Made by a program: the position numbers and the translations under genes. DNA of 64,000 nt from the NCBI GenBank assembly GCA_017937195.1, contig JAGBEA010000048.1, positions 16,188-80,187 of the forward strand, read 5' to 3'. Positions 1 to 50,639 of this stretch are shown in pieces. A model generated the notes under the pieces. The model was not told the origin of the DNA and searched no databases. It saw only the letters and a program-made list of their open reading frames with translations. Source of the DNA: Oscillospiraceae bacterium. GTDB lineage: Bacteria > Bacillota > Clostridia > Oscillospirales > Oscillospiraceae. Each line of letters starts with the position of its first letter. The stretch's first letter is position 1.

Positions 1-163
1 AGTAGAGCAAAGGAAGTCAAGGAACCATCGGTTCCTTGCGGCGTTTCTTTTCCTCTTTTCTTTCCGCTGTTGGAAAGAAAAGAGGCCGCCGGCGGCAGGA
101 CAAGACGGCAGCCTCGCAGGGAGCGCGTAAGCGTCAGCGAGGAGGGTGAGCCATCGCTGCGCC
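1..163 (+). repeat. Structured dispersed repeat, copy 1 (truncated by window start)
   Basis: Core hairpin CAAGGAACC-atc-GGTTCCTTG at 18-38. Second hairpin CCTCTTTTCTTTCC-gctgtt-GGAAAGAAAAGAGG at 52-85. Homologous to copies at 12.7, 25.1 and 27.2 kb. Confidence 0.85.
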
Positions 164-261
164 AGCCGTTGACAACCCCTCCGTCAGCTGCGCTGACACC
201 TCCCCTTGCACAGGGGAGGCTTTGGGTGAGCGTCAGCGAGGAGGGTGAACACGACCAAGTT

Positions 262-287
262 CGGCGCGCCGAGTCGTCGCGCCCTAC
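262..287 (-). repeat. GTAG-type REP-like palindrome
   Basis: Reverse complement reads GTAGGGCGCGACGACTCGGCGCGCCG (GTAG plus GGCGCG/CGCGCC stem). Near-identical copies at 17192 and 27616. Confidence 0.8.
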
Positions 288-328
288 GGGGTGCGGATTT
301 GGGGGGCGGACCCCAGTTTTTTTGCTTA

Positions 329-409
329 TTTTCAAAAAAATTTTTCGTCTGTTGCATCAAAATAGGCAACAAACGGCGGATTTCGCCCTATAAGTGAGAG
401 GACTTTTTG
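329..409 (+). promoter_or_regulatory. Conserved cluster promoter/operator, copy 1 (upstream of Zn-finger ORF/terS)
   Basis: TTTTC-A7-T5 tract, GTTG-N12-CAAC palindrome at 351-370, 19-nt spacer, ATAAGTGAGAGGACTTTTTG at 390-409. Same spacing as 2465-2545. Confidence 0.75.
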
Positions 410-424
410 GAAAGGAGAGAGAAA

Positions 425-613
425 ATGCGGTTTTCACGGATCATAGAGGCGGACGGCTCTGCCATCGTGCAGCAATGCGCGCTGTGCGGCGGCGAGATCT
501 ATCGGGGGGAGACCTACTACCACATCAGCGGTGAGGCGGTCTGCACCGCTTGCCTTGGCGATTACGCCAAAAAAGTCTTTGCACCGTTCATTACAAAAGG
601 AGGAGAGCAATGA
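425..613 (+). CDS. Small CxxC...CxxC zinc-binding phage-type protein
   Basis: SD AAAGGAG before ATG 425. CALC...CTAC motif. Stop overlaps the terS start (ATGA). Confidence 0.65.
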   Translation: MRFSRIIEADGSAIVQQCALCGGEIYRGETYYHISGEAVCTACLGDYAKKVFAPFITKGGEQ

Positions 614-1008
614 AAAGAAAGGACATCGCGTGGGATGCGCTGCGCCGCCGCTACGAGGCGGGGGAGGGCAGCTACCGCACACTGGGGGCAGAGTACGGCG
701 TTTCCTCGTCGTGCATCTCCCAAAAAGCCATCGCGGAGGGCTGGAGCAAGCCGGAACGGCTGAAGCAGCGCCGTGGGGAAACGGGGGAGCCGTGGCTCAC
801 CGCCGCGTCCCGACAGCTGGCTGCCGCGGCGCAGCAGACCATCCGCCAAAAGAACAGCGAGGAGCTGAGCGTGAAGGAGCTCAAGGAGCTGGCAGGCGTG
901 CTGAAGGAGCTGATGGCGCTGCAGCAGACCGTCAGCGGCAAGGAGGAGCAGCAGGAAAAACGGATCCATCTGGTGCTGGAGGGCGATATCCGGCGCTGGA
1001 GCGAGTGA
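610..1008 (+). CDS. terS: Terminase small subunit-like HTH protein
   Basis: N-terminal W..LRRRYEAG..SYR.LG.EYGVS..CI...A..EGW HTH typical of TerS. Lies directly upstream of TerL. ATG 610 has SD AGGAG. Confidence 0.7.
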   Translation: MKRKDIAWDALRRRYEAGEGSYRTLGAEYGVSSSCISQKAIAEGWSKPERLKQRRGETGEPWLTAASRQLAAAAQQTIRQKNSEELSVKELKELAGVLKELMALQQTVSGKEEQQEKRIHLVLEGDIRRWSE

Positions 1009-1020
1009 GGAGGGAGAGCA

Positions 1021-2403
1021 ATGGTGGAAAAATGGCTGGCGCTGGAGCGACCCAATCCGCGGCAGGAGGAATTCTTAAACAGCGCCTGCAAGTACATCGC
1101 CTTTGGCGGCGCAAGAGGCGGCGGCAAAAGCTGGGCGGTGCGCACCAAGGCAAAGCTGATGGCGGTGCGCTATCCCGGCATCCGGATGCTGCTGATCCGC
1201 CGCAGCTATCAGGAGCTGGAGAACAACCACATCCGCTTTCTGCGCCGCGAGCTGAATGAATTGGCGGAGTACCGCGCCGTAGCAAGGCAGTTTCTGTTCG
1301 TCAACGGCAGCGTGCTGGATTTCGGCTACTGCGGCTGTGACGGCGATCTGGACCGCTATCAGGGGGCGGAGTACGATGTGATCTTCATCGACGAGGCGAC
1401 CCAGCTGCAGGAGGAGTGGCTGCGGCAGTTTGCCGCCTGCCTGCGTGGTGTCAACGATTTCCCCAAGCGCATCTACTACACCTGCAACCCCGGCGGTCCG
1501 GGGCACGGCTACATCAAGCGCCTTTTCATCGACCGGCGCTACGAGGCGGGGGAGTCGCCGGAGGACTACCTCTTCATCCCCGCCCGCGTCACCGACAATA
1601 CGGCGCTGCTGCGCGCCCAGCCGGACTATCTCAAGCAGCTGCAGGCGCTGCCCCGCAAGCTGCGCGAGGCGTGGCTGGAGGGCAGGTGGGACATCTTTCA
1701 GGGGCAGTTTTTTCAGGAATTTACCGACGATCCTGCCCACTACGCCGACCGCCGCTTTACCCACGTCATCGAGCCCTTCCCCATCCCCCGGGAGTGGCGC
1801 ATCTACCGCAGCTACGATTTCGGCTACGCCAAGCCCTTTTCCTGCGCGTGGTGGGCGGTGGATTTTGACGGCGTGATCTACCGCATTCTGGAGCTGTACG
1901 GCTGCACCGAAACGCCGGACGAGGGGGTGCGCTGGACGCCCGACCGCCAGTTTGCCAAGATCCGCGAGATCGAGGACAACCATCCGTGGCTGCGCGGGCG
2001 GGACATTCAAGGCGTGGCGGACCCCTCCATCTGGGACACCAGCCGCGGCGAGAGCGTGTATGAGACGGCGCTGAAGTATCGGCTGTACTTCCAGCGGGGC
2101 GACAACCGCCGCATCCCCGGCTGGATGCAGATGCACTACCGTATGAGCTTTGATGACGAGGGCTACCCGATGATGTATGTGTTCAACACCTGCCGCGCCT
2201 TTTTGCGTACCGTGCCGCAGCTGATGTTCTCCGCCACCGATGTGGAGGACTTGGACACCCATCAGGAGGATCACGTGGCGGACGAGTGCCGCTATTTCTG
2301 TATGGCGCGGCCCATCCCTCCGGCGCGCAAGGAGAGCGGCCGGCTGCCGGCGGACGATCCGCTGGATCTGGCGCGGGGCAGCTTTGGCGCGTGGGGCAGG
2401 TAA
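1021..2403 (+). CDS. terL: Terminase large subunit
   Basis: Walker A GGARGGGKS, Walker B VIFIDEATQ, TCNPGG coupling motif, C-terminal nuclease region YDFGYAKPFS...DH.ADE.RY. Confidence 0.93.
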   Translation: MVEKWLALERPNPRQEEFLNSACKYIAFGGARGGGKSWAVRTKAKLMAVRYPGIRMLLIRRSYQELENNHIRFLRRELNELAEYRAVARQFLFVNGSVLDFGYCGCDGDLDRYQGAEYDVIFIDEATQLQEEWLRQFAACLRGVNDFPKRIYYTCNPGGPGHGYIKRLFIDRRYEAGESPEDYLFIPARVTDNTALLRAQPDYLKQLQALPRKLREAWLEGRWDIFQGQFFQEFTDDPAHYADRRFTHVIEPFPIPREWRIYRSYDFGYAKPFSCAWWAVDFDGVIYRILELYGCTETPDEGVRWTPDRQFAKIREIEDNHPWLRGRDIQGVADPSIWDTSRGESVYETALKYRLYFQRGDNRRIPGWMQMHYRMSFDDEGYPMMYVFNTCRAFLRTVPQLMFSATDVEDLDTHQEDHVADECRYFCMARPIPPARKESGRLPADDPLDLARGSFGAWGR

Positions 2404-2442
2404 CAATTAACAGTGAATAATTAATAATTAATAGTGAACGGT
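2401..2442 (+). repeat. Six AT-rich heptad repeats (consensus KAAYART)
   Basis: TAACAAT TAACAGT GAATAAT TAATAAT TAATAGT GAACGGT, starting at the terL stop codon. Confidence 0.8.
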
Positions 2443-2464
2443 TTGGGCGGGCTTTTTTGCTTCG

Positions 2465-2545
2465 TTTTCAAAAAAATTTTTTCAAAGTTGTACAAAACTA
2501 TACAACTTTCTGCTATGTGAGGGGGATAAGTGAGAGGACTTTTTG
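2465..2545 (+). promoter_or_regulatory. Conserved cluster promoter/operator, copy 2 (upstream of portal)
   Basis: TTTTC-A7-T6 tract, GTTG-N12-CAAC at 2487-2506, 19-nt spacer, ATAAGTGAGAGGACTTTTTG at 2526-2545. Confidence 0.75.
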
Positions 2546-2564
2546 AAAAACAAGGAGGAACGAT

Positions 2565-4388
2565 ATGGAACAGATTCTTACCCCCAAGATCGGCGCAGAG
2601 CAGGTGCGTCAGGCGGCGGAGATTTTGAAGAAGTACCGCCGCGGCAAGGCGCATCTGGAGCAGCGGCTCATCGACAACGAGCAGTTCTGGAAAATGCGCC
2701 ACTGGGAGCAGATGGACAAAAACGGCGAGGGCGGCAACGGCGCAGACCCCCGTCCCACCAGCGGCTGGCTGGTCAACTGCATCCTCTCCAAGCACGCCGA
2801 CGCTATGGACAGCTACCCCGAGCCCACCGTGCTGCCCCGCGAGCAGAGCGACACCGCCGAGGCGGAGAAGCTGAGCCGCATTTTGCCGGTGATCCTCAAG
2901 CGCTGCCGCTTCAAAAAGGTCTATGCCGACGGCTGGTGGCGCAAGCTGAAGTCCGGCTGTGCCGCCTACGGTGTGTTCTGGGACGGCAGCAAGCTGGGGG
3001 GCTTGGGCGACATCACCATACGCAGTATGGACATGCTCAACCTCTTCTGGGAGCCGGGTGTTACCGACATTCAGGACTCGCCCCACTTCTTCGCCACGGA
3101 GCTGGTAAGCAACGAGGAGCTGGTGCAGCACTACCCCCAGCTGGAGGGTAAGCTCCACGGCGGCAGCTTCTCCGTCAGCCGCTATCTCTACGACGATGCG
3201 GTGGACACGACCGACAAGTCGCTGGTGGTGGATTGGTATTACCACACCGAGGAAAAGGGCAGAAAAGTGCTGCAATACTGCAAATTCGTGGGGCAGACCG
3301 TACTTTATGCCACGGAAAACGATGTGGAAAGCGACATCGCCCAGCGCGGCTGGTACGACCACGGCAAGTATCCCTTCGTGTTCGACGTGCTGTTCCCCGA
3401 GGAGGGCACGCCCTGCGGCTACGGCTATGTGGATCTGTGCAAATCCCCCCAGAAGCAGATCGACCTGATGAATCAGGCGATTTTGAAAAACGCGCTGGCG
3501 GCGGCTACGCCCCGCTTCTTCATCCGCGCCGACGGCGCCGTGAACGAGGAGGAGTACGCCGATTGGACGCGCCCCTTCGTCCACACCAACGGAAATCTGG
3601 GCGCCGACTCCATCGCACCTATCCACACCGCAGGGCTGGACAGCGTGTATGTGGCGATTCTGCAGAGCAAGATCGCCGAGATGAAGGAGACGGCAGGCAA
3701 CCGCGATGTGGCAAACGGCGGCACCAGCGGCGGCGTGACGGCCGCCACCGCCATCGCGGCGCTGCAGGAGGCGGGCGGCAAGCTCAGCCGCAATATGATC
3801 GCCGACGGCTACGAGGCCTTCAGCGATGTGGTGACCCTCTGCATCGAGCTGATCCGCCAGTTTTATAGCCTCCCCCGCCAGTTCCGCCTGCTGGGCAAGA
3901 ACGGCGCGGAATTTGTCAGCTACGACAGCGCGGGGCTGCAGCTGCAGATCACCGATGACGGCTTTGGCGTGCAGTATCGCGTGCCCGAGTTCGATCTGGA
4001 GATCGCGGCGCAGAAGGAGAACCCTTACAAGACCATGGAGTACAATCAGCTGGCGCTGCAGCTGTTCCAGATGGGCTTTTTCCGCGAGGAATTGGCCGAT
4101 CAGGCGCTGCGCTGTCTGGAGCTGATGGAGTTTAAGAACAAAGAGCGCATTGCCGACTCCATCTCCCGCGCCCAGACGCAGGCGCAGGAGAACGAAATGC
4201 TGAAGGCGCAGCTGCAGGAGCTGGCAGCGGCGGTGGATGCCATAGGCGGCACGGCGCTGACCTCCGCGCTGCAGCAGGAGCTGGGCGGTGCGGGAACGGC
4301 GCAGCCCCACGGCGCCGCGCAGCAGGAGAAGCTGAGCGCGGTGGAGCAGATGCGCCTTGCCGCCCAGCAGGCGGTGCAGCCCCGATGA
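2565..4388 (+). CDS. Phage portal protein
   Basis: 607 aa, follows TerL, SD AAGGAGG. Helical composition with a Gln/Ala-rich C-terminal barrel-like tail, as in P22/N4-like portals. Confidence 0.8.
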   Translation: MEQILTPKIGAEQVRQAAEILKKYRRGKAHLEQRLIDNEQFWKMRHWEQMDKNGEGGNGADPRPTSGWLVNCILSKHADAMDSYPEPTVLPREQSDTAEAEKLSRILPVILKRCRFKKVYADGWWRKLKSGCAAYGVFWDGSKLGGLGDITIRSMDMLNLFWEPGVTDIQDSPHFFATELVSNEELVQHYPQLEGKLHGGSFSVSRYLYDDAVDTTDKSLVVDWYYHTEEKGRKVLQYCKFVGQTVLYATENDVESDIAQRGWYDHGKYPFVFDVLFPEEGTPCGYGYVDLCKSPQKQIDLMNQAILKNALAAATPRFFIRADGAVNEEEYADWTRPFVHTNGNLGADSIAPIHTAGLDSVYVAILQSKIAEMKETAGNRDVANGGTSGGVTAATAIAALQEAGGKLSRNMIADGYEAFSDVVTLCIELIRQFYSLPRQFRLLGKNGAEFVSYDSAGLQLQITDDGFGVQYRVPEFDLEIAAQKENPYKTMEYNQLALQLFQMGFFREELADQALRCLELMEFKNKERIADSISRAQTQAQENEMLKAQLQELAAAVDAIGGTALTSALQQELGGAGTAQPHGAAQQEKLSAVEQMRLAAQQAVQPR

Positions 4389-4660
4389 TCCGCGCCGTAT
4401 TTACCAAGGATCGGCTGACCCTGACGGGACACGCCGACTACGCCCCCTACGGGCAGGACATCGTGTGCGCCGCCGTTTCCGCGTTGACCTACGCGCTGAT
4501 CGCAGCGCTGCAGGAGAAGGGCTTGGTGCGGGAGCTGGTGGTGCGCTCGGGCTATGTGACGGTGGCGGCGCAGGAACCGTGCGAGGCGGAGTTTGCCATG
4601 ATCCGCTGCGGACTTGCCCAGCTGGCAGGGAGGTATCCCCAGTGCGTGAGGATGGAGTGA
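4385..4660 (+). CDS. prp: Prp-family cysteine protease (ribosomal L27-processing protease homolog)
   Basis: GHADYAPYGQDIVCAAVS matches the Prp His/Cys catalytic motif GHA...G.DIVCA.VS. Confidence 0.85.
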   Translation: MIRAVFTKDRLTLTGHADYAPYGQDIVCAAVSALTYALIAALQEKGLVRELVVRSGYVTVAAQEPCEAEFAMIRCGLAQLAGRYPQCVRME

Positions 4661-4726
4661 ACAATGAACAATGAATAATGAATAATTAATAATTATGAAC
4701 TGTTAATTATTAATTGTTGATTATTA
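4659..4726. repeat. Heptad-repeat hairpin (5 forward plus 4 inverted heptads)
   Basis: GAACAAT GAACAAT GAATAAT GAATAAT TAATAAT, loop TATGA, then ACTGTTA ATTATTA ATTGTTG ATTATTA. Starts at the prp stop. Confidence 0.8.
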
Positions 4727-4838
4727 GGTCGTGGCTTACCACGGAAAGGGAAGTCCCCCGATTGACCGTCGCAAAGCGGCGGGGAATCGGCTGGGGCAAC
4801 GGTGGCGATAGGACGCACTATCGCCGGAAAGGAGCAGT

Positions 4839-5417
4839 ATGAACGAAGAAAAACTGCAGCAGACGGCGGAGACCGTCACTACGGGCGAGGGCGCTCCCGT
4901 CGCCGGGGAGCAGGAGGACTTTGAAACACTGATCAAAGGCAGATGCAAGGAGGAATTCGATGCGCGGGTGAAAAAGATTCTGGACGGACGGCTGAAGGGA
5001 TTACGAAGAGAAAATGAGCGGCTGCGCCGAGCGCAGCAGGCACAAGCCGAGGCTGCCGCAGCAGCATTTGCCGCCTCACAACAGCAGCAGCAAGCGATCC
5101 GACAGATCTACCCCGCCTTCGATTGGCAGACGGAGGTGAAAAACCCCCTCTTCGGCAGGCTGATCGCCGCAGGCATCGACGCCAAAAGCGCCTACGAGGT
5201 GGTGCATCAGCGTGAGATTTTGCGCGATGCCATGAGCTACTCGGCACGCCGCGCCGCGCAGGCGGCTGCCGCCACCGTGGCAGCAGGCAGAGGGCGCACC
5301 GCCGAGGTGGGCAGGCGCGCTGCCGCTGTCACCGCCAACGATCCCCGCACCCTCAGCAGCCGCGAGCTGGCAGAGATCCGCAAGCGGGTGCTGGACGGGG
5401 AGAAGATCCGCTTTTGA
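4839..5417 (+). CDS. Capsid scaffolding protein
   Basis: Lies between protease and capsid. Acidic N-terminus, coiled-coil middle (F..LIKG..K.EFD.RV..I...RLK), SD AAAGGAG. Confidence 0.7.
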   Translation: MNEEKLQQTAETVTTGEGAPVAGEQEDFETLIKGRCKEEFDARVKKILDGRLKGLRRENERLRRAQQAQAEAAAAAFAASQQQQQAIRQIYPAFDWQTEVKNPLFGRLIAAGIDAKSAYEVVHQREILRDAMSYSARRAAQAAAATVAAGRGRTAEVGRRAAAVTANDPRTLSSRELAEIRKRVLDGEKIRF

Positions 5418-5449
5418 GAGGTGTTTCCAAAACGGAAAGGAGATTTTTT

Positions 5450-6439
5450 ATGATGAGAAACTTTGACCTGCAGCTGTTTGCAGGTGAGATGAACACCCAG
5501 ACCACCGCAGGTCTGAGCGCAGAAATGAAGACCTATTACGGCATGGAGCTGCTGGAGAACGCACGCCCCCAACTGGTGCATAACCAGTTCGCTGCCACCA
5601 AGCCCCTGCCCGTGGGCGGCGGCAAGACCGTGGAGTGGCGTAAGTTTGGCTCCTTCGACAAGGCGCTGACCCCCCTGACCGAGGGCGTCACCCCCGACGG
5701 CAGCGGCATCTCCGTCAGCTACATCACCAAGGAGCTGGCACAGTACGGCGACTACACCACCGTGTCCGATATGCTGGATCTGACCGCCATCGACGACGTG
5801 GTGCTGGAGATCACCGACCGCCACGGCGCCAATATGGGTCTGACGCTGGACACCGTGACCCGCAACGAGATTTTGCAGGGCAATCAGGTGATCTACGCCC
5901 CCAAGGCTGACGGCACCGAGATCACCAGCCGCAGTGAGCTGGACGCGACCTGCAAGCTGACGGGCGAGCTGGTGGCCAAGGCTGCCACGGCGCTGAAGAA
6001 GATGAACGCCCCCAAGTTCGACGGCAAGTACATCTGCATCATCCACCCCAGCGTGGCTTTCGACCTGCGTCAGGACGAAGCTTGGCTGGCCGCCCACCAG
6101 TATGCCGCCGCCACGGAGCTGTTCAGCGGCGAGATCGGCGAGCTGCACGGCGTGCGCTTCGTGGAGACCACCGAGGCCAAGATCTTTGAAGAGGGTGCAG
6201 GCAATTGCGCCGTGTATGCCTGCCTGTTTCTGGGCAAGGGCGCTTACGGCGTTGTGGATCTGAGCGAGGGCACCGAGGTCATCGTCAAGCCCCGCGGCTC
6301 CAGCGGCACCGCCGATCCTCTGGATCAGCGCAGCAGCGTGGGCTGGAAGGGCGTACACGCCGCCGCCATCCTCTACGATGAGTACATCGTGCGCGTGGAG
6401 TGCGGCTCCAGCTACTCCGATCAGGATAAGGCCAACTGA
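5450..6439 (+). CDS. Major capsid protein, N4-gp56 family
   Basis: EMKTYY..ELLENARPQLVHNQF..TKPLP.GGGKTVEWRKF and DPLDQRSSVGWK motifs. N-terminal FDLQLF/A Prp-type cleavage motif. Confidence 0.88.
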   Translation: MMRNFDLQLFAGEMNTQTTAGLSAEMKTYYGMELLENARPQLVHNQFAATKPLPVGGGKTVEWRKFGSFDKALTPLTEGVTPDGSGISVSYITKELAQYGDYTTVSDMLDLTAIDDVVLEITDRHGANMGLTLDTVTRNEILQGNQVIYAPKADGTEITSRSELDATCKLTGELVAKAATALKKMNAPKFDGKYICIIHPSVAFDLRQDEAWLAAHQYAAATELFSGEIGELHGVRFVETTEAKIFEEGAGNCAVYACLFLGKGAYGVVDLSEGTEVIVKPRGSSGTADPLDQRSSVGWKGVHAAAILYDEYIVRVECGSSYSDQDKAN

Positions 6440-6509
6440 GGCAGTTAACAGTTAGCAATTGTCCGATGGGTGGAGGGCGGGTATCGAAACCAAACAAGGA
6501 GGAACGGCA

Positions 6510-6716
6510 ATGAGCAATACCAAAATGACCAAGATCCTGCTGCCGCGCGGCAGAAAGAACGAGGAGAACTTCGTGATCGTGTCCGTCAACGGCAAGAGCT
6601 GGAAGATCATGAAGGGTGTGGAAGTGGAAGTGCCCGTCTATGTGGCGGAGGTGCTGGAGAACGGCCGCAGAATGGCCGAGGAGGCCCGCCGCTATGTGGA
6701 TAAGATGGCGGAATAA
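6510..6716 (+). CDS. Small virion-associated protein
   Basis: SD AAGGAGG before ATG 6510. VSVNG...I.KGVEVEVP..VAEVL pattern commonly follows N4-gp56-type capsid genes. Confidence 0.65.
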   Translation: MSNTKMTKILLPRGRKNEENFVIVSVNGKSWKIMKGVEVEVPVYVAEVLENGRRMAEEARRYVDKMAE

Positions 6717-6731
6717 GAGGGAGGGGCGAAG

Positions 6732-7070
6732 ATGTCCAAGCTGACAGTCAATGAGGTGCTGCAGCAGGTGGACAGCCTGCTGCCCAACCAGTACAGCGAA
6801 GAGCAGAAGCGCCACTGGATCGCGCAGGCGGAGGGCTTTGTGGCGGAGCTGACGGGCACCGCGGCGGAGGAGGGCGTGCTGACCGCCCCCGCGCCCTACT
6901 GCCAGCTGTACCGCCACTATGTGGAGGCGCAGATCCACTACGCCAACGCCGAAACGGAGCGGTTCAACAACGCTATGGCGCTGTGGAACAGCCTGCTGCT
7001 TGCCTATCACAGCCACTTGGCAAGAAACGGCGCACTGCGCGGCACAGCCACGGCGCTGAAGCTGTGCTGA
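6732..7070 (+). CDS. Putative head-tail adaptor/connector
   Basis: 112 aa after the capsid genes. D.LLPNQY....K..WI and APY..LY.HY.EAQI.YAN.E..RFNN pattern. Position supports the call. Confidence 0.55.
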   Translation: MSKLTVNEVLQQVDSLLPNQYSEEQKRHWIAQAEGFVAELTGTAAEEGVLTAPAPYCQLYRHYVEAQIHYANAETERFNNAMALWNSLLLAYHSHLARNGALRGTATALKLC

Positions 7071-7083
7071 AAGGAGGGGGGAG

Positions 7084-8790
7084 ATGTTTTTTCCCAAACT
7101 GAACATCCTGCGCCAAAGCCGCGTCACCGTCAGCCGCTTTCTGGGCTATGACCGCCGAGAGCGGGCGGCGCAGGGCAGCTTTTCCCATATGGAGAATCTG
7201 TGCAGCGACGCCTATCCCGCATTGCAGGTGCGATGCAAGCGCGGCACGGTGGGGCAGGCGGAGCGCCCCAACGCCCTGACGGAGAAGGAGGCGCTGATCT
7301 GGGTGGACGGCAGCACGCTGTATGTCAACGGGCTTGCCACGGGCTTGGTGCTGACCGATTCGCCCAAGCAGCTGATCTCCATGGGCGCGTATCTGGTGAT
7401 CTTTCCCGATAAGAAGTGGATCAACACGCGGGACCTGAGCCGCTTCGGCAGCCTTGAAAATAGGACCGAGAGCCACGGCACGGTGACCTTTTCGCTGTGC
7501 AGGGCGGACGGCACCGCCTTTGAGCGGTATCTCACGGCGCAGCAGCAGCCCCAGCAGCCGGAGGCAGGGGCGCTGTGGCTGGATACCTCCGGCGACGCGC
7601 CGGTGCTGCGCCGCTATGAGGAGAGCGGCTGGGCGGCGGTGGAGGAGACGTGCGTGAAAATCGCGGCAGCCGGCATCGGCATCGGCTTTGCAGCCGGCGA
7701 CGGCGTGACCATCAGCGGCTGTGAGAGCGCGGGGCTGGACGGCAGCGCGGTGCTGCTGCAGGCGCAGGACGATGCGCTGGTGGTGACCGGCATTCTGTGG
7801 GGCGATACCACCCAGGACACGGCGGTGACCGTGGCGCGCACCGTGCCGGAGATGGACTTCGTCACCCAGTGCGGCAACCGCCTTTGGGGCTGCAAATACG
7901 GCGTGGTGGACGGACGCGCCGTCAATGAGATTTACGCCAGCAAGCTGGGGGACTTCAAGAACTGGAACTGCTTTGCCGGTCTCTCCACCGACAGCTACGC
8001 CGCCTCCCGCGGCAGCGATGGCGCTTTTACCGCAGCTGCCGCCTATCTGGGCAGCGTGCTGTTTTTCAAGGAGGAGTGCATCGAGCGGGTCTACACCAAT
8101 GCCGCCGGCGCTCACCAAATCGTGACGCTGGAGTGCGCGGGTGTGAAAAAGGGCAGCCACAACAGCGTGCAGACGGTGGAGGGCACGCTGTACTACCACG
8201 GCAGCGGCGGCGTGTACGCCTTTGACGGCAGCCTGCCCGTATCGGTGTCGCAGGCGCTGGGCGACCTTTCGCTGCGCGATGCGGCGGCAGGCGCGGTGGA
8301 TGGCAGGTACTATCTCAGCGCCCAAAGCGATGATGGCGCGCAGCTGCTGGTCTACGATACCCGCTTGGGGCTGTGGCACAGAGAGGACAGCCTGCGCGTC
8401 ACGGATTTTGCCGCCCGTGGGGAGGAGCTGTACGCCCTCACCGACCACGGCGAGATTTTGTCGCTGCGGGGCGGGGAGGAGGAGCGCATCGCGTGGCTTG
8501 CCGAGAGCGGCGAGCTGGGCATCGACACGGCGCAGCAGAAGTATCTCATCCGCGTCAGCGTGCAGCTGCAGCTGGCGCAGGACGCCGCGGTGGAGGCGTA
8601 CATCAGCTATGACGGCGGCAAATCGTGGCAGGCGCAGGGCGTGCTGCAGGGCACGGGCGCTATGGGCAGAAGCTGCCTGCATCTGCGCCCCCGACGCTGC
8701 GACCGTCTGCGCTGGCGGCTGCAGGGCGTGGGCGATTGCACCGTCTACAGCGTGTCGGCGGTGTATGAGAAGGGGAGTGACAGCCTATGA
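7084..8790 (+). CDS. Putative nozzle/head-stabilisation protein (P22 gp10 / T7 gp12-like)
   Basis: 568 aa, beta-rich, directly after the adaptor. NEIYASKLGDFKNWN.F.GLSTDSYA motif. Confidence 0.55.
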   Translation: MFFPKLNILRQSRVTVSRFLGYDRRERAAQGSFSHMENLCSDAYPALQVRCKRGTVGQAERPNALTEKEALIWVDGSTLYVNGLATGLVLTDSPKQLISMGAYLVIFPDKKWINTRDLSRFGSLENRTESHGTVTFSLCRADGTAFERYLTAQQQPQQPEAGALWLDTSGDAPVLRRYEESGWAAVEETCVKIAAAGIGIGFAAGDGVTISGCESAGLDGSAVLLQAQDDALVVTGILWGDTTQDTAVTVARTVPEMDFVTQCGNRLWGCKYGVVDGRAVNEIYASKLGDFKNWNCFAGLSTDSYAASRGSDGAFTAAAAYLGSVLFFKEECIERVYTNAAGAHQIVTLECAGVKKGSHNSVQTVEGTLYYHGSGGVYAFDGSLPVSVSQALGDLSLRDAAAGAVDGRYYLSAQSDDGAQLLVYDTRLGLWHREDSLRVTDFAARGEELYALTDHGEILSLRGGEEERIAWLAESGELGIDTAQQKYLIRVSVQLQLAQDAAVEAYISYDGGKSWQAQGVLQGTGAMGRSCLHLRPRRCDRLRWRLQGVGDCTVYSVSAVYEKGSDSL

Positions 8791-9512
8791 GCGCATTGAT
8801 GATGCCGCCCCAGCCCACGGGTACGGTGCGTGAGCAGCTTTTGCGCCAGTATTCCTATCTCTTCCAGATGGCGCAGCAGCTGAATCTGGCGCTGGAGCAG
8901 CTGGAGCAGGGGACGGCGCAGCCGCAGCAGGGAATTACCCGCACCGCCCAGCCGCAGGAGCAGCAGTACCGCACGCTGAAAAGTATGGTCATCCAAACGG
9001 CGCAGCAGGTGCGGCAGGAGATGGACCGCCTTGCCGCAAGGCTGGAGGGGGAGTATGTGGCGGTGTCCGACTTTGGCACCTATGTGGAGCGGCTGAACAA
9101 CTACATTGAGGCCAATCCCGACGCCATCACCCAGTACTACAGCTTCTCCTCGGCGCTGCAGGCGGATATCGATGCCGTCAGCGCCGATTTTGACGACTAC
9201 CGCGCCGATACGCAGGGCTATATCCGCACCGGTATCGTGTACTATGACGGCGCGGTGCCGGTGTACGGCGTGGCGGTGGGGCAGAATCTCACCGCCACCG
9301 AGGTGGACGGCGAGCCTATGGTGGACCAGAACAATTTCCGCGCCACCTTTACCGCGCGGAAGCTGTCGTTCTGGCAGGATACCACGGAGGTGGCCTATGT
9401 GTCCGACAATCAGCTGTACATCACCAATATCACCGTGCTGCAGCAGCTGACGGTGGGAAAATGGAAGCTCAGCGCCGAGAACGGGCTGGCATTCCGATGG
9501 ATCGGAGGGTGA
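8787..9512 (+). CDS. Minor virion structural protein
   Basis: N-terminal coiled coil and C-terminal FTARKLSFWQ...VAY.SDNQLYIT beta region seen in Firmicute phage baseplate proteins. Confidence 0.55.
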   Translation: MSALMMPPQPTGTVREQLLRQYSYLFQMAQQLNLALEQLEQGTAQPQQGITRTAQPQEQQYRTLKSMVIQTAQQVRQEMDRLAARLEGEYVAVSDFGTYVERLNNYIEANPDAITQYYSFSSALQADIDAVSADFDDYRADTQGYIRTGIVYYDGAVPVYGVAVGQNLTATEVDGEPMVDQNNFRATFTARKLSFWQDTTEVAYVSDNQLYITNITVLQQLTVGKWKLSAENGLAFRWIGG

Positions 9513-9515
9513 GAG

Positions 9516-11300
9516 ATGGCGACGACCTTACAACTGACGGTGCAGGCGGTGGAGAACTCCGCCAGCATCGACAACAACACCAGTCAGGTGCTCATCGAGC
9601 TGCAGATCACCACCAATCTTGGCACCTATAACGAAAGCGGCGACACCTCCGGCTCCATCACGCTGGACGGCGTGCCCATCGCGGATCTGGCGGCGAAAAA
9701 GGTGCATCTCAACACCACCACGCAGCTCTATCGCGGCATCCACACCGTACCCCACAGCGAGGACGGCACCAAGACGGTGACGGTAAAGGCGGCTTTCGAT
9801 GTGAATACCTCTGTGCGCTGGATCTATGCGGAAAAGGCGGTGGTGCTGCCCCGTATCCCCCGCGCCTCCACATTGAGCGTGCCGCAGCTGATGCTGGGCA
9901 GCGAGAGCGTGCTGCAGGTGACACGGGCGGTGGACAGCTTCACCCACACCCTGACCTATCGCCTCGGCGCGGCGCAGGGAACGGTGGCGCAGCATACGGC
10001 GGAAACGGCGCTGTGCTGGACGCCGCCGCTGGAGCTGGCGCAGCAGATCCCCAGCGATACCGCCGGCGCAGGCGTGCTGCAGCTGACCACCTATGATGCA
10101 GATGGCAGCGAGATTGGGGTGAAGGAATATCCCTTTACTGTCTATGTGCCGCAAAGCATTGTGCCGTCGGTGAGCCTGACTGTCGCACTGGAGAGCGACA
10201 GCGTGCCGCCTGAGTGGAACGCGGCGGTGAAGGGGAAGACGCGCCTGCGCTACTGCGTGGCAGCGCAGGGGCAGTACGGCGCGTCCATCCGCAGCAGTGC
10301 CTTTACCTTTGCCGGTCAATCCGGCAGCGAGAGCGAGGGCGTCACCGGCATCGTCACCCAAGCGGGCAGCTTCGTCCCCCGCGTCACGGTGACCGACAGC
10401 CGCGGACGCAGCGCCTCGGCAGCGCTGGAGGCAATCACGGTGTACGACTACGCCCTGCCGGTGATTTTGCAGGCGTCGGTCAGCCGCTGCGGCGCCGACG
10501 GCACGGGCAATGGCAGCGGCGAGCACGCGGCGGTGCTGTGTGAAGCCGTCTGCAGCGATATCGGCGGGCGCAACGCGGTGTCGGTGCGGATGCGCAGCCG
10601 CGCGGTGGGCGGCGCGTGGAGCGGCTACACCCCCCTCGTCAGCGGAGAGACGAGGGTGATAGGCGGCTTTTTGAAGACCGCGTCCTACGAGGTGGAGCTG
10701 TCGGCGGTGGACAGCTTGGGCGAGGAGAAGACGGTGCGCTGCAGCCTCTCCACCGAGGCGGCAGCCTTCCACTTGGGCGAGGGCGGCAACTGCGGTGCCT
10801 TCGGCAAATACGCAGAGCAGGAGAACACCCTTGAGTGCGTGTGGAACGCGGAGTTTCAGCAGGATGTGCGCGTGGGCGGTGCGCTGACGGTGGGCGGCAG
10901 GACGCTGCTGGACACGGTGTATCCCGTGGGCAGCATCTACCTTGCCTACCACCATATCTCCCCTGAAACGCTGTTTGGCGGTGTGTGGCAGCGCATCGGC
11001 GGCAGCTTTCTGTGGGCAGCGGAGGCGGAGGAGACCATCGGCGACACCGGCGGCGAGCGGCAGCACACACTGACGGTGGACGAGCTGCCCCGCCATCAGC
11101 ATATTGCGGTGCGGGGCTATGATGCCGATGTGCCCGACTATTTCGGCGGCTCGGAGGCAAAGTGGGGCATCACCGGCGGCGATTCCACCGCAGCGGCTGT
11201 CACCACGCACAGCGCCTCCACCGGTTTCACCGGCGGCAGCGCACCCCACAACAATATGCCGCCCTACATCAAGATTTCCGCGTGGCGGCGCACCGCATAA
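9516..11300 (+). CDS. Tail fibre/receptor-binding protein (DUF859-like N-terminal part plus baseplate-type C-terminal domain)
   Basis: IPRASTL motif and Ig-like beta repeats. C-terminal YPVGSIY...P..LFGG.W.RI and HNNMPPYI...WRRTA motifs. Confidence 0.7.
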   Translation: MATTLQLTVQAVENSASIDNNTSQVLIELQITTNLGTYNESGDTSGSITLDGVPIADLAAKKVHLNTTTQLYRGIHTVPHSEDGTKTVTVKAAFDVNTSVRWIYAEKAVVLPRIPRASTLSVPQLMLGSESVLQVTRAVDSFTHTLTYRLGAAQGTVAQHTAETALCWTPPLELAQQIPSDTAGAGVLQLTTYDADGSEIGVKEYPFTVYVPQSIVPSVSLTVALESDSVPPEWNAAVKGKTRLRYCVAAQGQYGASIRSSAFTFAGQSGSESEGVTGIVTQAGSFVPRVTVTDSRGRSASAALEAITVYDYALPVILQASVSRCGADGTGNGSGEHAAVLCEAVCSDIGGRNAVSVRMRSRAVGGAWSGYTPLVSGETRVIGGFLKTASYEVELSAVDSLGEEKTVRCSLSTEAAAFHLGEGGNCGAFGKYAEQENTLECVWNAEFQQDVRVGGALTVGGRTLLDTVYPVGSIYLAYHHISPETLFGGVWQRIGGSFLWAAEAEETIGDTGGERQHTLTVDELPRHQHIAVRGYDADVPDYFGGSEAKWGITGGDSTAAAVTTHSASTGFTGGSAPHNNMPPYIKISAWRRTA

Positions 11301-11315
11301 GGAAAGGAGAAGGAA

Positions 11316-12437
11316 ATGGCAAAGAATTATCCCACCGTGGGCTACGGCTCCTACGGTGACCCCGTGCGCCAGCTGCAGCAGGCGCTCAATCAGGTTGGCT
11401 ACTCGCTGGAGGTGGACGGCGGCTTCGGCAAGGAGACGGAGGCAGCCGTCATCGACTATCAGAAGAAGAACGGTCTGGTGGTGGACGGCGTGGCAGGCAG
11501 CGAAACTATGGGCAGCCTCTTGGGTCAAATCATGGGCGGCGCAGCATCCGGCGGCGCATCCACCAGCAAGCAGGTGCTCTCCGGCGTATCCGATGAAACG
11601 GCAGACAAGCTGGCGCAGCTGGAAAAGGGCTACACCGCCTCGGATGAGGTGCTGGCAGCGGGCAAGGAGTACGAGAGCCTGCAGGCGCTGCAGCCCAAGG
11701 CGTATGCATCCTCCTTCGCCCAGCAGCTTGCGGCGCTGTACGAGGAGATTGCCGGACGCCCCGGCTTCCACTATGACCCTCAGAAGGACAGCGCCTATCA
11801 GCAGTATGCCGCCATCTATGCCCGTCAGGGCAAGGCAGCCATGGAGGATACACTGGGCAAGGCGGCGGCGCTGACCGGCGGCTACGATTCCAGCTATGCC
11901 CAAGGCGCGGCGCAGCAGGCATATCACCAGTATCTCCAGCAGCTGGGAGAGCTGCTGCCCCAGCTGGAGCAGAGCGCCCGCGAGCGCTATGACGCGCAGG
12001 GCAAGGCGCTGCTGAGTCAGTACGAGCTGCTGCAGCAGCGTGAGGACGCGGAGTACGAGCTGTGGCAGCAGGAGCAGAAGCTGTGGCAGGACAGCTCCGA
12101 GCAGGCGCGGGAGGCGTATGAGGCGCTGCGCAAGCAGGATTATGACGCCTATGAGCTGCTGCTCAAGTACTATGCCGACAAGGCGCAGGCGGAGCAGAAG
12201 GCATCGGACGGGCAGCGCGTCAACAGCGGCAAGGTCAGCGATAAGGCGGCATCGCAGGAGTCCCTCAGCTCCACTGCGGCGGACAGCCTGCAGCGTGCGA
12301 TGAACAACTATCTCAAGGGCGGCGACGAGGTCAGCGCACTGGCGCTGGCGCAGCAGTACGCCGCGCGTATGACCCCTGAGCAGAAAAGGAAGTTCACCGC
12401 GCTTTTTGAGAAGTACGGCAAGACCGTCACGCTGTAA
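11316..12437 (+). CDS. Peptidoglycan-binding domain protein with helical C-terminal region (candidate ejection protein)
   Basis: N-terminal PG_binding_1 (GSYGDPVRQLQQALN..GY...VDG.FG.ET..AV..YQKKNGL.VDGVAG.ET). Gln/Ala/Tyr-rich helical remainder with no catalytic motif seen. Confidence 0.75.
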   Translation: MAKNYPTVGYGSYGDPVRQLQQALNQVGYSLEVDGGFGKETEAAVIDYQKKNGLVVDGVAGSETMGSLLGQIMGGAASGGASTSKQVLSGVSDETADKLAQLEKGYTASDEVLAAGKEYESLQALQPKAYASSFAQQLAALYEEIAGRPGFHYDPQKDSAYQQYAAIYARQGKAAMEDTLGKAAALTGGYDSSYAQGAAQQAYHQYLQQLGELLPQLEQSARERYDAQGKALLSQYELLQQREDAEYELWQQEQKLWQDSSEQAREAYEALRKQDYDAYELLLKYYADKAQAEQKASDGQRVNSGKVSDKAASQESLSSTAADSLQRAMNNYLKGGDEVSALALAQQYAARMTPEQKRKFTALFEKYGKTVTL

Positions 12438-12449
12438 CGCGGCAAAAGA

Positions 12450-12690
12450 CCCCCTCGAAGGGGGGATTCCACCGAAGCGCCGCCGGTGGCGGATGAAGCG
12501 AGGTGGAATCGAGGCAGCGCCCCGTTTGGCGGGTGCGAACAGCACACGCCAAACGGCTGGCGCAACGGTGGGAACACAAGCGCAGCTGACTGGGGGAGCG
12601 AACGGGGCGGTGTTTTTTCTCGCCCGCGGCGCCTTTTTGTGATAGTATGCAGCCAAATAAACGCCTCCCCTGTGCACAAGGGAGGCTTGG
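12450..12690. repeat. Palindrome-rich intergenic module
   Basis: Stems GATTCCACC/GGTGGAATC (12465-12510), CCGTTTGGCG/CGCCAAACGG (12522-12556) and CCTCCCCTGTGCACAAGGGAGG near 12664, related to the hairpin at 199-219. Confidence 0.6.
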
Positions 12691-12714
12691 GTCGGCGCTT
12701 CGGTCGGTAGGACG

Positions 12715-12958
12715 CAGCGGTTCTACATTTGTGAGCGGGAAGTGGCTGAACGAGGGAGATGCAGAGGCAATGCCACATTTAGCGGCTTACGGATTTGCCG
12801 CAATAGAGCAAAGGAAGTCAAGGAACCATCGGTTCCTTGCGGCGTTTTTGGTGACTTTTGTCGCTGGTGACAAAAGTTACCCGCCGGCGGCAAGACACGC
12901 CATCAACACAGCAGGGAGTGCGTGAGCGTCAGCGCCGAGGGCAAGCCATCGCTGCGCC
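12715..12958 (+). repeat. Structured dispersed repeat, copy 2
   Basis: Core hairpin at 12819-12839. Second hairpin GTGACTTTTGTC-gctggt-GACAAAAGTTAC. Shared 3' GCGTGAGCGTCAGCGC. Confidence 0.88.
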
Positions 12959-13031
12959 GTGAAACGCTCCCTCCGTCCGCTGTATTGCCCACCGCTACGC
13001 CAGCGCCCAACCAAAAAGTCCTCTCTTGCTA

Positions 13032-13061
13032 TTGACAAGAGGGGGCTTTCTTTTTCATAAT
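13032..13061 (+). promoter_or_regulatory. SigmaA-type promoter
   Basis: TTGACA-18 nt-CATAAT upstream of the transglutaminase-like gene. Confidence 0.55.
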
Positions 13062-13091
13062 GGAGAAAAACCGCGCAGGGGAGGCAGGACA

Positions 13092-14114
13092 ATGGCAGGC
13101 TACTACGGCAAGACGCTGACGGGACGGCAGCGGGAGGTCTACGCGCTGCTGCAGCAGGGCTTTGACGCCCTCGCGCCCTCCATCCGCATCCCCAAGCTGG
13201 CGGCGGAGGAGCTGGCGGAGGTCTATTTGCGCCTGAAGCTGGATGAGCCGCTGCTGTTCTTCGTCATCGGCTACAGCTACCGCTACTATCAGGGGGCGGA
13301 GCACGTGGAGCTTTTGCCCGAATATCTCTTCGACAAGGCGAAGGTGAAGGAACACCGCCAAGCCGTCGCCGCCCGCATCCAGCGCTTGGCGCGGGGGATG
13401 GAGGGTCTCTCGCCGCTGGAGAAGGAGCAGGCCATTCACGACTTCATTTTGCACAATGTCCGCTATGACAAGCTGAAAAAGCCCTACTCCCACGAAATCA
13501 TCGGCCCGCTGACCCAAGGCGTGGGCGTGTGCGAGGGCATCGCCAAAACGGTGAAGGTGCTGTGCGACGCGGTGGGTCTGCCCTGCGTCATCGCCCTGAG
13601 CCACGCCAACCCCGATAAGGGCATCCGCTACCGCCACGCATGGAACGTCATCACGCTGAACGGCAGGCACTATCATCTCGACGCCACCTTCGATAACTCG
13701 CTGCAGCGTGGGTGTGAGCGGTACGACTACTTCAATCTGGATGATAAGCACATCTTCCGCGACCACGAGGCGCTGGTGCTGCCGCTGCCTGCCTGCACCG
13801 ACGGCGACGGATTTTTCTACCGCAGCATCTCACTGACCAAGCTGGAGCAGGTGGAAAGCCGCGTGAAGCAGGCGCTGCGGAAAAAACAGCCCCAGCTGGT
13901 GTTCCACTGGCGCGGCGGCGGACTCAACCGCGCCGTTTTGCAAAGCATCACCGACCTTGCAGGCGGTCTTGCCGCCCAAAAGGGGCTTGCGGTGTGCTGC
14001 GCCGTCAACGTGCCCCAAGCGGTGCTGCAGCTGGATTTTGCCGCGGAAACGGCGGCGGATGTGACCGTGCAGCAGCCCGATGAGGCGCAGGATAATGCGT
14101 CTTTCACAATTTAG
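13092..14114 (+). CDS. Transglutaminase-like (Cys-His-Asp) domain protein
   Basis: GVCEGIAK...HAWNV...YHLDATFD catalytic triad motifs. ATG 13092 follows GGAGG. Confidence 0.85.
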   Translation: MAGYYGKTLTGRQREVYALLQQGFDALAPSIRIPKLAAEELAEVYLRLKLDEPLLFFVIGYSYRYYQGAEHVELLPEYLFDKAKVKEHRQAVAARIQRLARGMEGLSPLEKEQAIHDFILHNVRYDKLKKPYSHEIIGPLTQGVGVCEGIAKTVKVLCDAVGLPCVIALSHANPDKGIRYRHAWNVITLNGRHYHLDATFDNSLQRGCERYDYFNLDDKHIFRDHEALVLPLPACTDGDGFFYRSISLTKLEQVESRVKQALRKKQPQLVFHWRGGGLNRAVLQSITDLAGGLAAQKGLAVCCAVNVPQAVLQLDFAAETAADVTVQQPDEAQDNASFTI

Positions 14115-14150
14115 CACGAAAAAGAACGGCTATTTTGTGCAAAATGACGG

Positions 14151-14179
14151 TTGACAGTGGATGGGTTGAATGTTACCAT
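14151..14179 (+). promoter_or_regulatory. SigmaA promoter of the met transporter operon
   Basis: TTGACA (14151-14156), 17 nt, TACCAT (14174-14179), with an extended -10 TG. Confidence 0.75.
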
Positions 14180-14227
14180 ACTCACAAGCACCGAGTAGGT
14201 CAATTTCTCAGGAAAGGAGAAAGCGAC

Positions 14228-14323
14228 ATGAAGAAGAGCGTTACCATGATGGCTATGGAGATGCGCATGTGCAGCATGTGCATGTTTCGTCACGCTCACT
14301 TCCAACAGCTTTCCAACACCTGA
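14228..14323 (+). CDS. Met-rich leader peptide MKKSVTMMAMEMRMCSMCMFRHAHFQQLSNT
   Basis: SD AAAGGAG. 8 Met of 31 codons, 7 of them in codons 7-19, plus 2 Cys. Lies upstream of a terminator and metQ. Confidence 0.8.
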   Translation: MKKSVTMMAMEMRMCSMCMFRHAHFQQLSNT

Positions 14324-14363
14324 TTCAAGACCTGAACCCATCGGGATATGAACGAGTGAATAG

Positions 14364-14403
14364 CAGCGGAAAGTCGTTGGACTTCCCGCTGTTTTTTGTT
14401 TTT
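14364..14403 (+). terminator. Attenuator terminator
   Basis: CAGCGGAAAGTC-gttg-GACTTCCCGCTG followed by TTTTTTGTTTTT. Confidence 0.85.
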
Positions 14404-14412
14404 CAGGAGGTA

Positions 14413-14475
14413 ATGATGATGCGAATCCGGCTTACCAAGCGAATGTGTCTGCGGACACAGTATAAGGAAGATTGA
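14413..14475 (+). CDS. Second short uORF MMMRIRLTKRMCLRTQYKED
   Basis: Perfect SD AGGAGG at 14405-14410, three tandem ATGs, 4 Met and 1 Cys in 20 codons. Confidence 0.45.
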   Translation: MMMRIRLTKRMCLRTQYKED

Positions 14476-14547
14476 ACCGGTATAACGGAGCGCCGGCATA
14501 CAGCTTCGTGAAAAACAAATCATTCAAAATTAAAGGAGATAAAGATT

Positions 14548-50578: not shown

Positions 50579-50639
50579 AAAAGCCACCACCTTTCCGTCT
50601 TACTTTCTTACTCCGGAAAAAGAGGGGGATGTCACAAAT

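Follow-up and report, generated by a model that had tools for sequence, protein, structure and literature searches.

How the separate operons of a phage-like gene cluster might be transcribed in concert is the question raised by a stretch of 64,000 nucleotides from an Oscillospiraceae bacterium (contig JAGBEA010000048.1; the whole of this stretch is called the window here). Near its start lies a 12.4-kb cluster of podovirus-type genes arranged in two operons, and each operon is headed by a short control unit, copy 1 at 317-409 before operon 1 and copy 2 at 2453-2545 before operon 2. These units are the species-specific version of a conserved and portable cassette, probably a promoter/operator, which heads each operon of a widespread element resembling FpGTA, the gene transfer agent (GTA) of Faecalibacterium prausnitzii. 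The architecture of the cassette, its conservation among relatives and its restriction to the first genes of cluster operons are observed directly, and they are described before the question of what acts on it.

Alignment of 280-440 with 2416-2580 shows the same blocks at the same spacing in both units. An earlier note on this DNA had claimed two identically spaced copies beginning at 329 and 2465; the spacing holds, and the real start lies about 12 nt further upstream. Each unit opens with an upstream block (317-345 and 2453-2481) composed of TTTTTTGCTT, 2-3 variable bases and TTTTCAAAAAAATTTTT. It is followed by an inverted repeat whose core, GTTG-N12-CAAC at 351-370 and 2487-2506, had been recognised correctly and whose arms prove to be longer than was then given; a 19-nt spacer follows each core, and these two sites are the only ones of their kind in the window. 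The units end in an exact 20-mer, ATAAGTGAGAGGACTTTTTG (390-409 and 2526-2545), which has exactly 2 matches in the window at up to 3 mismatches against 0.01 expected, and a start codon with a Shine-Dalgarno (SD) sequence follows within 15-19 nt (ATG at 425 and at 2565, respectively). The 17-mer of the upstream block starts with TTTTCAAAAA (329-338; 2465-2474), the reverse complement of the end of the 20-mer region (403-413; 2539-2549), which reads TTTTTGAAAA in copy 2 and TTTTTGGAAA in copy 1. Being reverse complements, these two exactly conserved blocks could pair or form symmetric sites around the promoter; the long-range pairing of TTTTCAAAAA with TTTTTGAAAA is present, with weak folding z scores (-1.4 and -2.1).

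Among relatives, the family signature is the palindrome and its geometry, and not the 20-mer. The exact 20-mer and 17-mer are both absent from IMG/VR and from 185,579 GTDB species genomes, and thus they are lineage-specific. The 20-mer, which the earlier note regarded as a conserved motif, is one within the window, and across the family only its 5' part, (C)TATAAGTGAG, is kept; the nearest species (L061) has GGATAAGTGAAAGGCTTTTTTC in its place. Nearly all relatives with portal/terL identity of at least about 70%, amounting to dozens of species, carry an A/T tract and [T]GTTGCCC-N6-GGGCAAC[A], both upstream of the portal gene and upstream of the terminase module. The related loci, 1.89 Mb in total, contain 95 sites of the form GTTG-N12-CAAC, compared with 2-19 for each other spacing between N4 and N23, and about 80 of the 95 are followed, 30-100 nt further on, by a gene that opens a cluster operon. 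These first genes encode the portal (33 or more), a Zn-ribbon protein (17 or more), terL (10), a DUF6291 protein (7 or more) or a collagen-repeat tail fibre (2), the last being followed by an Amidase_3/SPOR endolysin gene. Cluster genes explain the whole excess, the remaining sites being chance background, and the flanking host DNA of the fetched loci shows no excess at unrelated genes. A search of JGI metagenomes for the A/T tract plus palindrome returned only 3 matches, which are unrelated low-GC chance hits.

The exact palindrome is present in 40 of the 52 GTDB-species loci whose terL is at least 73% identical and in 0/28 of those at 65% or below, and most of the 12 exceptions in the former group carry a palindrome with one mismatch. 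In true-phage relatives, which are more distant, terL and portal abut without an intergenic promoter and the cassette is missing, so the internal cassette is a derived feature of the domesticated clade. The earlier note had predicted a selected cis-regulatory architecture that would recur before orthologous genes, and this prediction is borne out: palindrome, N12, distance to the box and A/T tract all recur before orthologous terS, terL and portal genes. Its suggestion that unlinked lysis genes might belong to the same regulon also finds support in split-locus species (L100, L095), where tail-fibre/lysis modules carry the motif.

The geometry downstream of the palindrome is equally strict. In about 20 non-redundant promoters, including copy 1 of the window, exactly 16 nt separate the proximal CAAC from CCTAT(A/T)(A/G)G. 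Promoters of a second class carry a further half-site, GGCAAC in direct orientation, 12 nt downstream, and have the box at an offset of 28, which is 16 + 12. The proximal arm is better conserved than the distal one, and the -10-like box ends in G in nearly all members, so that the invariant final T of σA boxes is missing. Upstream, A3+T3+ tracts are found in 31/77 family promoters versus 1.4 expected, and their A-to-T junctions are phased, falling at either of two positions one helical turn apart, -8..-11 and -18..-22 relative to the palindrome; in the window the junction is at -10 in both copies, 10 nt ahead of the palindrome in copy 1. We propose that the A/T block of copy 1 is an UP-like or bending element, or a second protein site, and that its palindrome is the operator of a dimeric factor with the proximal arm GGCAACA at the -35 position. 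The copy 1 box runs on into the exact 20-mer as a U-rich leader. A terminator-like hairpin directly 5' of copy 1 probably insulates the cluster from transcription coming from upstream; a hairpin with a T-run immediately 5' of the palindrome is also found in several relatives (L087, L088, L095). The palindrome loop is inverted between otherwise similar copies, L104:1123 and L104:3626 (ACCGTTTGTGTG vs CACACAAATGGG) as well as L161 and L164/L172 (CTCATCCG vs CGGATGAG), which is the pattern expected of hairpin-mediated template switching.

Neither unit has the two hexamers, 16-18 nt apart and with A as the second and T as the sixth base of the -10, that define a σA (σ70-type) housekeeping promoter. 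A consensus scan of 1-14600 detected no TTGACA/TATAAT-type pair within 317-409 or 2453-2545, as the earlier note had stated, weak matches (9/12) being confined to the AT-rich 2400-2435, 5' of copy 2. Over 64 non-redundant sites there is no RNA-type covariation: the score is 0.170 vs 0.149 in shuffles (27/500), which is not significant, and paired cells make up 66.4% vs 65.1% (58/500). The arms are conserved as sequence, N12 is constant whether or not the inner bases pair, and Rfam and tRNA scans gave 0 matches. Taken together these results lead us to read the palindrome as a probable protein-binding DNA operator.

We therefore favour, as a reasonably probable explanation, activator-dependent (class II-like) initiation by a dimeric factor that is probably encoded by the host. 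The two 81-93-bp units would be copies of one portable transcription-control cassette, and each operon of a domesticated podovirus-type GTA-like cluster would stand under a common trans-acting DNA-binding factor. Read from 5' to 3', the cassette would consist of, in some cases, an insulating terminator, then the phased AnTn tract, the 20-22-bp palindrome TGTTGCCC-N6-GGGCAACA, exactly 16 nt, the box CCTAT(A/T)(A/G)G-T-G/A, and a short U-rich leader with an SD sequence. RNA polymerase presumably could not start unaided here, because there is no σA -35 and the -10-like box is without the invariant final T. A dimeric regulator would bind the palindrome, which, with TATAAG (389-394) taken as the -10 element, would be centred at -40.5, about 40 bp upstream of the start, where class II sites classically lie; the promoter-proximal half-site would stand in for the -35, and the A/T tract would give upstream contacts or a bend.

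Several known systems are arranged in a comparable way. The LuxR/TraR lux-box is a 20-bp inverted repeat near -42.5, and CRP/FNR bind a 22-bp site at -41.5. The cassette shares with these class II promoters a 20-22-bp palindrome, conserved in sequence and spacing, over or replacing the -35, a -10-like element at fixed distance, and upstream A/T DNA available for contacts by the C-terminal domain of the RNA polymerase α subunit; it differs in its half-site centres (15-16 bp apart, compared with 10-11 in LuxR/CRP sites), in a -10-like box without the σA-invariant T and in having no linked LuxR- or CRP-family protein, and its position relative to the transcription start site (TSS) is here an inferred one. 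Phage activators offer a second parallel: Mor/C of Mu bind a dyad near -43.5, and the small zinc-finger activators Ogr of P2 and Delta of P4 bind TGT-N12-ACA near -55. There as here a dyad stands upstream of morphogenetic operons without a -35, a 12-nt gap is involved, several operons share one element, and operon 1 of the window even begins with a 62-aa CxxC..CxxC protein. On the other side, this protein has neither a Pfam Ogr_Delta or Mor match nor a PDB relative, many cassette loci are without a Zn-ribbon gene and have DUF6291 or terL first instead, and the dyad is nearer the start. The site of ComA in B. subtilis, an inverted repeat TTGCGG-N4-CCGCAA with a third half-site, resembles the palindrome in its outer TTGC...GCAA and the subclass with a third, direct half-site (GGGCAAC-N8-CAAC), but N6 between 8-mers replaces N4 between 6-mers, and no ComA-type regulator is implicated.

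The earlier note had likened the units to terS promoters under RinA/ArpU-type activators. It is true that with RinA, ArpU and Alt, too, a dedicated promoter before terS drives the packaging and morphogenesis genes; however, in those phages the activator gene directly precedes terS, whereas relatives of the window have no activator gene there and show the housekeeping genes NUDIX, SmpB, a cyclophilin-like peptidyl-prolyl isomerase (PPIase) and dnaG-rpoD, and here a second copy precedes the portal gene. The analogy thus does not hold as to gene context. Closer in organisation are the alphaproteobacterial GTAs, in which GafA acts at the RcGTA promoter (PMC6363796) and, in Caulobacter, GafYZ activation is combined with anti-termination (PMC11150451). 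They likewise combine a domesticated structural cluster and multi-locus regulons, including unlinked tail and lysis genes, with factors encoded elsewhere in the host genome, as is probable here. They differ in being siphovirus-like and of HK97 type, whereas the present cluster is podovirus-like and of N4-gp56/P22-portal type, and the motifs are unrelated.

A number of observations weigh against activator-dependent initiation as outlined. Half-site centres 15-16 bp apart are unusual for helix-turn-helix (HTH) dimers. Only 2-6 nt separate the -10-like box from the SD in the extra copy (TATAAGTGAGGTGATAATG) and in L064 and L095; a start 7 nt 3' of the box would cut the SD, so the TSS may lie at or just after TATA, in which case the box may not be a σ70-type -10. 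In L086, L096-98, L033 and L083 the arms reach 12-15 bp with a T-run and look like a terminator. Logan contigs of RNA-labelled runs yielded no TSS: X25, the sole RNA-labelled run with the organism, has a flat, DNA-like depth of about 3x and a contig that already begins at 346, 5' of the palindrome, while other metatranscriptomes match only in coding regions of relatives. There is no regulator candidate in the 10-kb flanks of about 50 loci, nor a dimeric-activator candidate among the annotated window genes (called with Pfam and PHROGs up to about 31 kb and from about 45 kb on, a few shorter open reading frames (ORFs) excepted). Lastly, within-genome copies are more alike than between-genome copies in every sub-region, most strongly in the palindrome centre (0.67 vs 0.43), which suggests that concerted evolution or co-evolution with the factor adds to purifying selection; this excess extends even to the spacer, so that a part of it reflects shared history and not selection. 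The earlier assertion that the pair is selected and not a recent duplication consequently stands as to selection, and not as to the independence of the copies.

Much of the fine geometry could also be accommodated by an alternative sigma factor acting without an activator, with GGCAACA as -35, (C)CTATAAG as -10 and a 17-18-nt spacer, the distal arm then being secondary (a bidirectional or insulator hairpin, or a relic). The fixed distance from proximal half-site to box, the better conservation of the proximal arm, the fact that where a third direct half-site exists only the proximal one keeps the spacing, the box without the σA-invariant T and the half-site-only candidate at 4793-4826 would all follow naturally. 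Yet a distal arm that a sigma factor could dispense with is kept at exact N12 in about 80 promoters, and decayed distal arms still have only one mismatch. The motif is also not known to match the consensus of σ54, σD, σB, σE/F/G/K or extracytoplasmic function (ECF) factors, and the sole sigma gene in the window (50024-50590) has a different upstream motif. We regard this alternative as unlikely.

Slightly less probable still, in our estimation, is a repressor that blocks the -35 region of an otherwise constitutive weak promoter and whose inactivation gives particles, for which LexA-controlled antirepressors and RogA in Caulobacter would be parallels. The palindrome does overlap the presumed -35, and in a temperate phage the cassette also stands before what may be an anti-repressor gene or an antisense transcript, a situation for which control by host repressors (LexA/Tum-type) is known; the palindrome is nevertheless unlike the Firmicute LexA box (GAAC-N4-GTTC). 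It would also suit a repressor that GTA production must stay tightly off in most cells (PMC12946183), but judged as a σA promoter the core is very poor, a -35 match being absent and the -10 ending in G in nearly all members, and de-repression alone would accordingly give little transcription.

An element acting at the RNA level, in which the palindrome is a transcribed hairpin (terminator, attenuator, anti-termination or processing site) in a long transcript started upstream, and the box and 20-mer are signals of the 5' untranslated region or between cistrons, appears improbable. The covariation, N12 and Rfam results given above speak against it. The predicted hairpins are indeed moderately stable, with -11.4 and -7.3 kcal/mol (z of -3.1 and -1.9, respectively); stems of 12-15 bp with a T-run occur in some relatives, T/G flanks that would allow U·G pairing are often found at -6..-9, the X25 contig already starts before the palindrome, and the Caulobacter cluster is partly under anti-termination (PMC11150451). 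Against this, the terminator scan calls a separate terminator upstream of copy 1 and neither 346-375 nor 2484-2509, no conserved σA promoter lies upstream, and a terminator would give no obvious reason for the fixed N16 to the box. A role outside transcription, as a DNA site used in packaging (TerS/pac), in recombination or in replication, or as a mobile selfish hairpin, would fit two copies flanking the terminase genes, an operon 1 that encodes HTH terS-like and Zn-ribbon proteins, and loops inverted as in hairpin-forming palindromes (L104; L161 vs L164), but is most improbable given a cassette always oriented towards a start codon with SD 30-100 nt away, its fixed spacing to a -10-like box, and the fact that terL-only, tail-fibre and DUF6291 genes as well as a phage lysogeny switch have it too.

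Returning to the activator, where might it be encoded? The search for it has mainly removed candidates. The ECF-type sigma gene of the window was suspected from its own upstream GTGACA-N17-AGTAAG and was dropped: its orthologues keep TGTGACA...CCGGAGT(A/C)A and lack a GCAAC dyad, and other clusters are not accompanied by a homologue. Its family is very widespread in Clostridia and has the conserved upstream motif TGTGACA-N17-AGT(A/C)A. The Zn-ribbon protein at 425-613, considered as an Ogr-like activator, gave a sub-threshold DUF2175 match, PHROGs of unknown function and 3 database homologues; with its gene missing from many cassette loci it is a weak candidate only. Of the further known factors considered, σ54, σD, σB, the sporulation sigmas, LexA and LytTR were none of them convincing, and neither was CodY for the A/T tract (12-13/15 matches to AATTTTCWGAAAATT).

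A scan of IMG/VR with the consensus palindrome is more informative. It returned about 30 contigs of one temperate-phage family of 41-44 kb (L144-L181), whose terL differs from that of the GTA-related phages, with one site per phage made up of an A/T tract, TGTTGCCC-N6-GGGCAACA, N18 and TATAAGT. In L153 (about 41 kb) this cassette is located in the lysogeny module (7771-8295) beside a gene for a CI-like HTH_3 repressor and points at a 42-aa ORF (7876-8004), which is convergent with and overlaps the repressor gene; the ORF sequence LTPEQKDVMLNLVESLL resembles the C-terminal tail of the repressor, LTPQQKDTVLALIKGFL, and may be an anti-repressor or antisense switch. The cI/cro region of L153 has a separate palindrome, CCCTAAGTTAGGG, with TTGACA-N17-TATAAT. 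Two unrelated elements that share one cassette point to a host-encoded factor, and since true-phage relatives of the cluster are without the cassette and no regulator gene travels with the cluster, the factor is probably encoded by the host. It is possible, though we advance this only tentatively, that one host regulator fires all dispersed GTA operons through its 22-bp dyad (TGTTGCCC-N6-GGGCAACA) and that unrelated temperate phages captured the cassette ahead of an anti-repressor or antisense transcript and are co-induced.

The genes of the element that the cassette serves mark it as GTA-like and not as a prophage. The cluster contains head, tail, packaging and lysis genes only (within the window, whose upstream edge is at position 1), and no replication, integration or lysogeny genes were found in it or in relatives with 10 kb upstream. 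Relatives of its terL are spread over at least 103 GTDB species, most of them Oscillospiraceae such as Vescimonas, Oscillibacter and Faecousia, and are preceded, where 10 kb of upstream sequence is present, by the housekeeping genes named above (NUDIX and SmpB by Pfam, PPIase and dnaG-rpoD read off the sequences). In about 12 species terL stands alone, apart from the portal-to-tail genes. The distribution is therefore vertical and host-like, with loci that can be split. The major capsid protein (MCP) is 88-93% identical across thousands of protein clusters; the best 120 MCP homologues are all closer relatives than FpGTA, and we found no cultured phage related to the cluster. FpGTA is a podovirus-like GTA, and GTA-type packaging has been reported in Oscillospiraceae, random packaging of host DNA being demonstrated for Faecalibacterium and inferred for Oscillospiraceae (PMC12946183). 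Both elements are podovirus-like, live in gut Oscillospirales, share the order terS, terL, portal, scaffold, MCP with conserved hypotheticals, and sometimes have tail and lysis genes at a second locus; the likeness to FpGTA (proteins RCH50849.1 and RCH50851.1) drawn here is one of gene content and order. In F. prausnitzii APC918/95b the two FpGTA operons are placed at 2536737-2546346 and 2672270-2677176 of CP030777 (PMC12946183).

Table 1. Positions of the control elements, cluster genes and other features of the window.
Feature	Position	Strand	Basis or remark
Terminator-like hairpin TTGGGGGGCGGACCCCAG with T-run, directly 5' of copy 1	299-323	+	Terminator scan
Copy 1 upstream block TTTTTTTGCTT-A-TTTTCAAAAAAATTTTT, A7T5 tract	317-345	+	Sequence, alignment
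Copy 1 palindrome, arms CGTcTGTTGC / GCAACAaACG, core 351-370	346-375		
Copy 1 -10-like / start-site box CCTATAAGTGAG	387-409	+	16 nt after CAAC
Copy 2 upstream block TTTTTTGCTT-CG-TTTTCAAAAAAATTTTT	2453-2481	+	Sequence, alignment, repeat family D13
Copy 2 palindrome, arms AAAGTTGTA / TACAACTTT, core 2487-2506	2484-2509		
Copy 2 -10-like / start-site box GGGATAAGTGAG	2523-2545	+	Exact 20-mer at 2526-2545
Tentative third promoter, half-site only, GGGGCAAC-N16-ACTATCG	4793-4826	+	
Operon 1, whole	425-2403	+	Pfam, PHROGs
62-aa CxxC..CxxC zinc-ribbon protein	425-613	+	Operon 1
terS-like HTH protein	610-1008	+	Operon 1
terL	1021-2403	+	Operon 1
Operon 2, whole	2565-12437	+	Pfam, PHROGs
P22-like portal	2565-4388	+	Operon 2
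Prp protease	4385-4660	+	Operon 2
Scaffold-like protein	4839-5417	+	Operon 2
MCP, N4-gp56 family by NCBI name	5414-6439	+	Operon 2
Two small proteins between MCP and internal virion protein		+	Operon 2
Internal virion protein	7084-8790	+	Operon 2
Minor tail protein	8787-9512	+	Operon 2
DUF859/Gp10_C tail protein	9516-11300	+	Operon 2
PG_binding_1 lysis-type protein	11316-12437	+	Operon 2
IS30-like transposase (HTH_38 + rve)	47060-48025	-	Low-GC island among host genes
298-aa protein without Pfam domains	49131-50027	-	After ECF sigma; probably anti-sigma
ECF-type sigma (Sigma70_r2 + r4_2)	50024-50590	-	

Some features of the cluster and its surroundings (Table 1) deserve mention in their own right. 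The tentative third promoter lies 39 nt before the scaffold ATG at 4839, is without a left arm and is preceded by the AT-rich repeat 4660-4726; in some relatives the corresponding position is occupied by a full cassette (L028:3144, L033:3955, L037:3038). This repeat is one of two copies of AACAATTAACAGTGAATAATTAATAATTAATA (the other at 2402-2435), which are 91% identical and directly follow the terL and Prp stops in a cluster that is otherwise 60% G+C; the second copy forms a 22-nt inverted repeat, and run X25 has raised depth and many loose ends at 4658-4693. The gene for the Prp-type cysteine protease stands between those for portal and scaffold. Prp is the family that processes ribosomal protein L27, and some Firmicute phages reuse it for capsid/scaffold maturation. 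An exact 44-nt direct repeat, TAGAGCAAAGGAAGTCAAGGAACCATCGGTTCCTTGCGGCGTTT, flanks the cluster at 3-46 and 12804-12847, as do further GC-rich repeats of repetitive extragenic palindrome (REP)-like type, direct and inverted (86-245 vs 12552-12958). Within 86-245, the stretch 187-226 reaches a contig depth of several thousand in run X25 where neighbouring sequence has about 3-10, and is a highly repeated or abundant element. The window and the sole public contig with the same terL both stop just upstream of copy 1, probably because the flanking REP-like repeats break the assemblies. Ordinary host genes begin at about 13 kb with a transglutaminase-like gene, which has its own strong σA-type promoter at 13032-13061, followed by metQNI and others. 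Far downstream, the IS30-like transposase gene lies in an island of 48% G+C and 0.49 G+C at third codon positions (GC3).

A further copy may exist in the same genome. Logan contigs from five gut metagenomes (X1, X2, X6, X8, X10) branch at position 398, 366-398 continuing either as in the window or as GTGATAATGATGAGCAGACCCGG..., a form that encodes MMSRPGIV..., an N-terminus of DUF6291 type; in run X2 the two forms have nearly equal depth (33 vs 36.7). Either the genome has a third cassette or the strains differ here; the extra form is from the same or a sister strain. In another contig of X8 REP-like sequence and a GGAGC-T6-GCTCC hairpin run straight into the portal cassette, with the join at 2466; in this variant terS-terL is missing upstream of the cassette.

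Podovirus-type GTAs of gut Oscillospirales were first recognised in 2026 (PMC12946183). That paper uses the word 'promoter' 0 times and describes no promoter or regulator of FpGTA, a follow-up transductomics preprint does not mention a promoter either, and the literature that we searched has no description of this motif or of any gut-GTA promoter. The cis-element can serve as a tag for dispersed GTA loci, such as the tail, lysis and DUF6291 modules that homology searches miss, as a bait for the DNA-affinity isolation of the regulator, and as a reporter handle on the gut conditions that trigger DNA release. Its conservation in dozens of gut Oscillospiraceae species makes it a handle for finding the switch that governs particle production. 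The same cassette at the lysogeny switch of a temperate phage suggests a host signal with a wider role in horizontal gene transfer in the gut, and if a single host regulator does act on all of these operons and on the phage switch, the release of GTAs and the induction of prophages would be coupled through one sensor in abundant gut bacteria.

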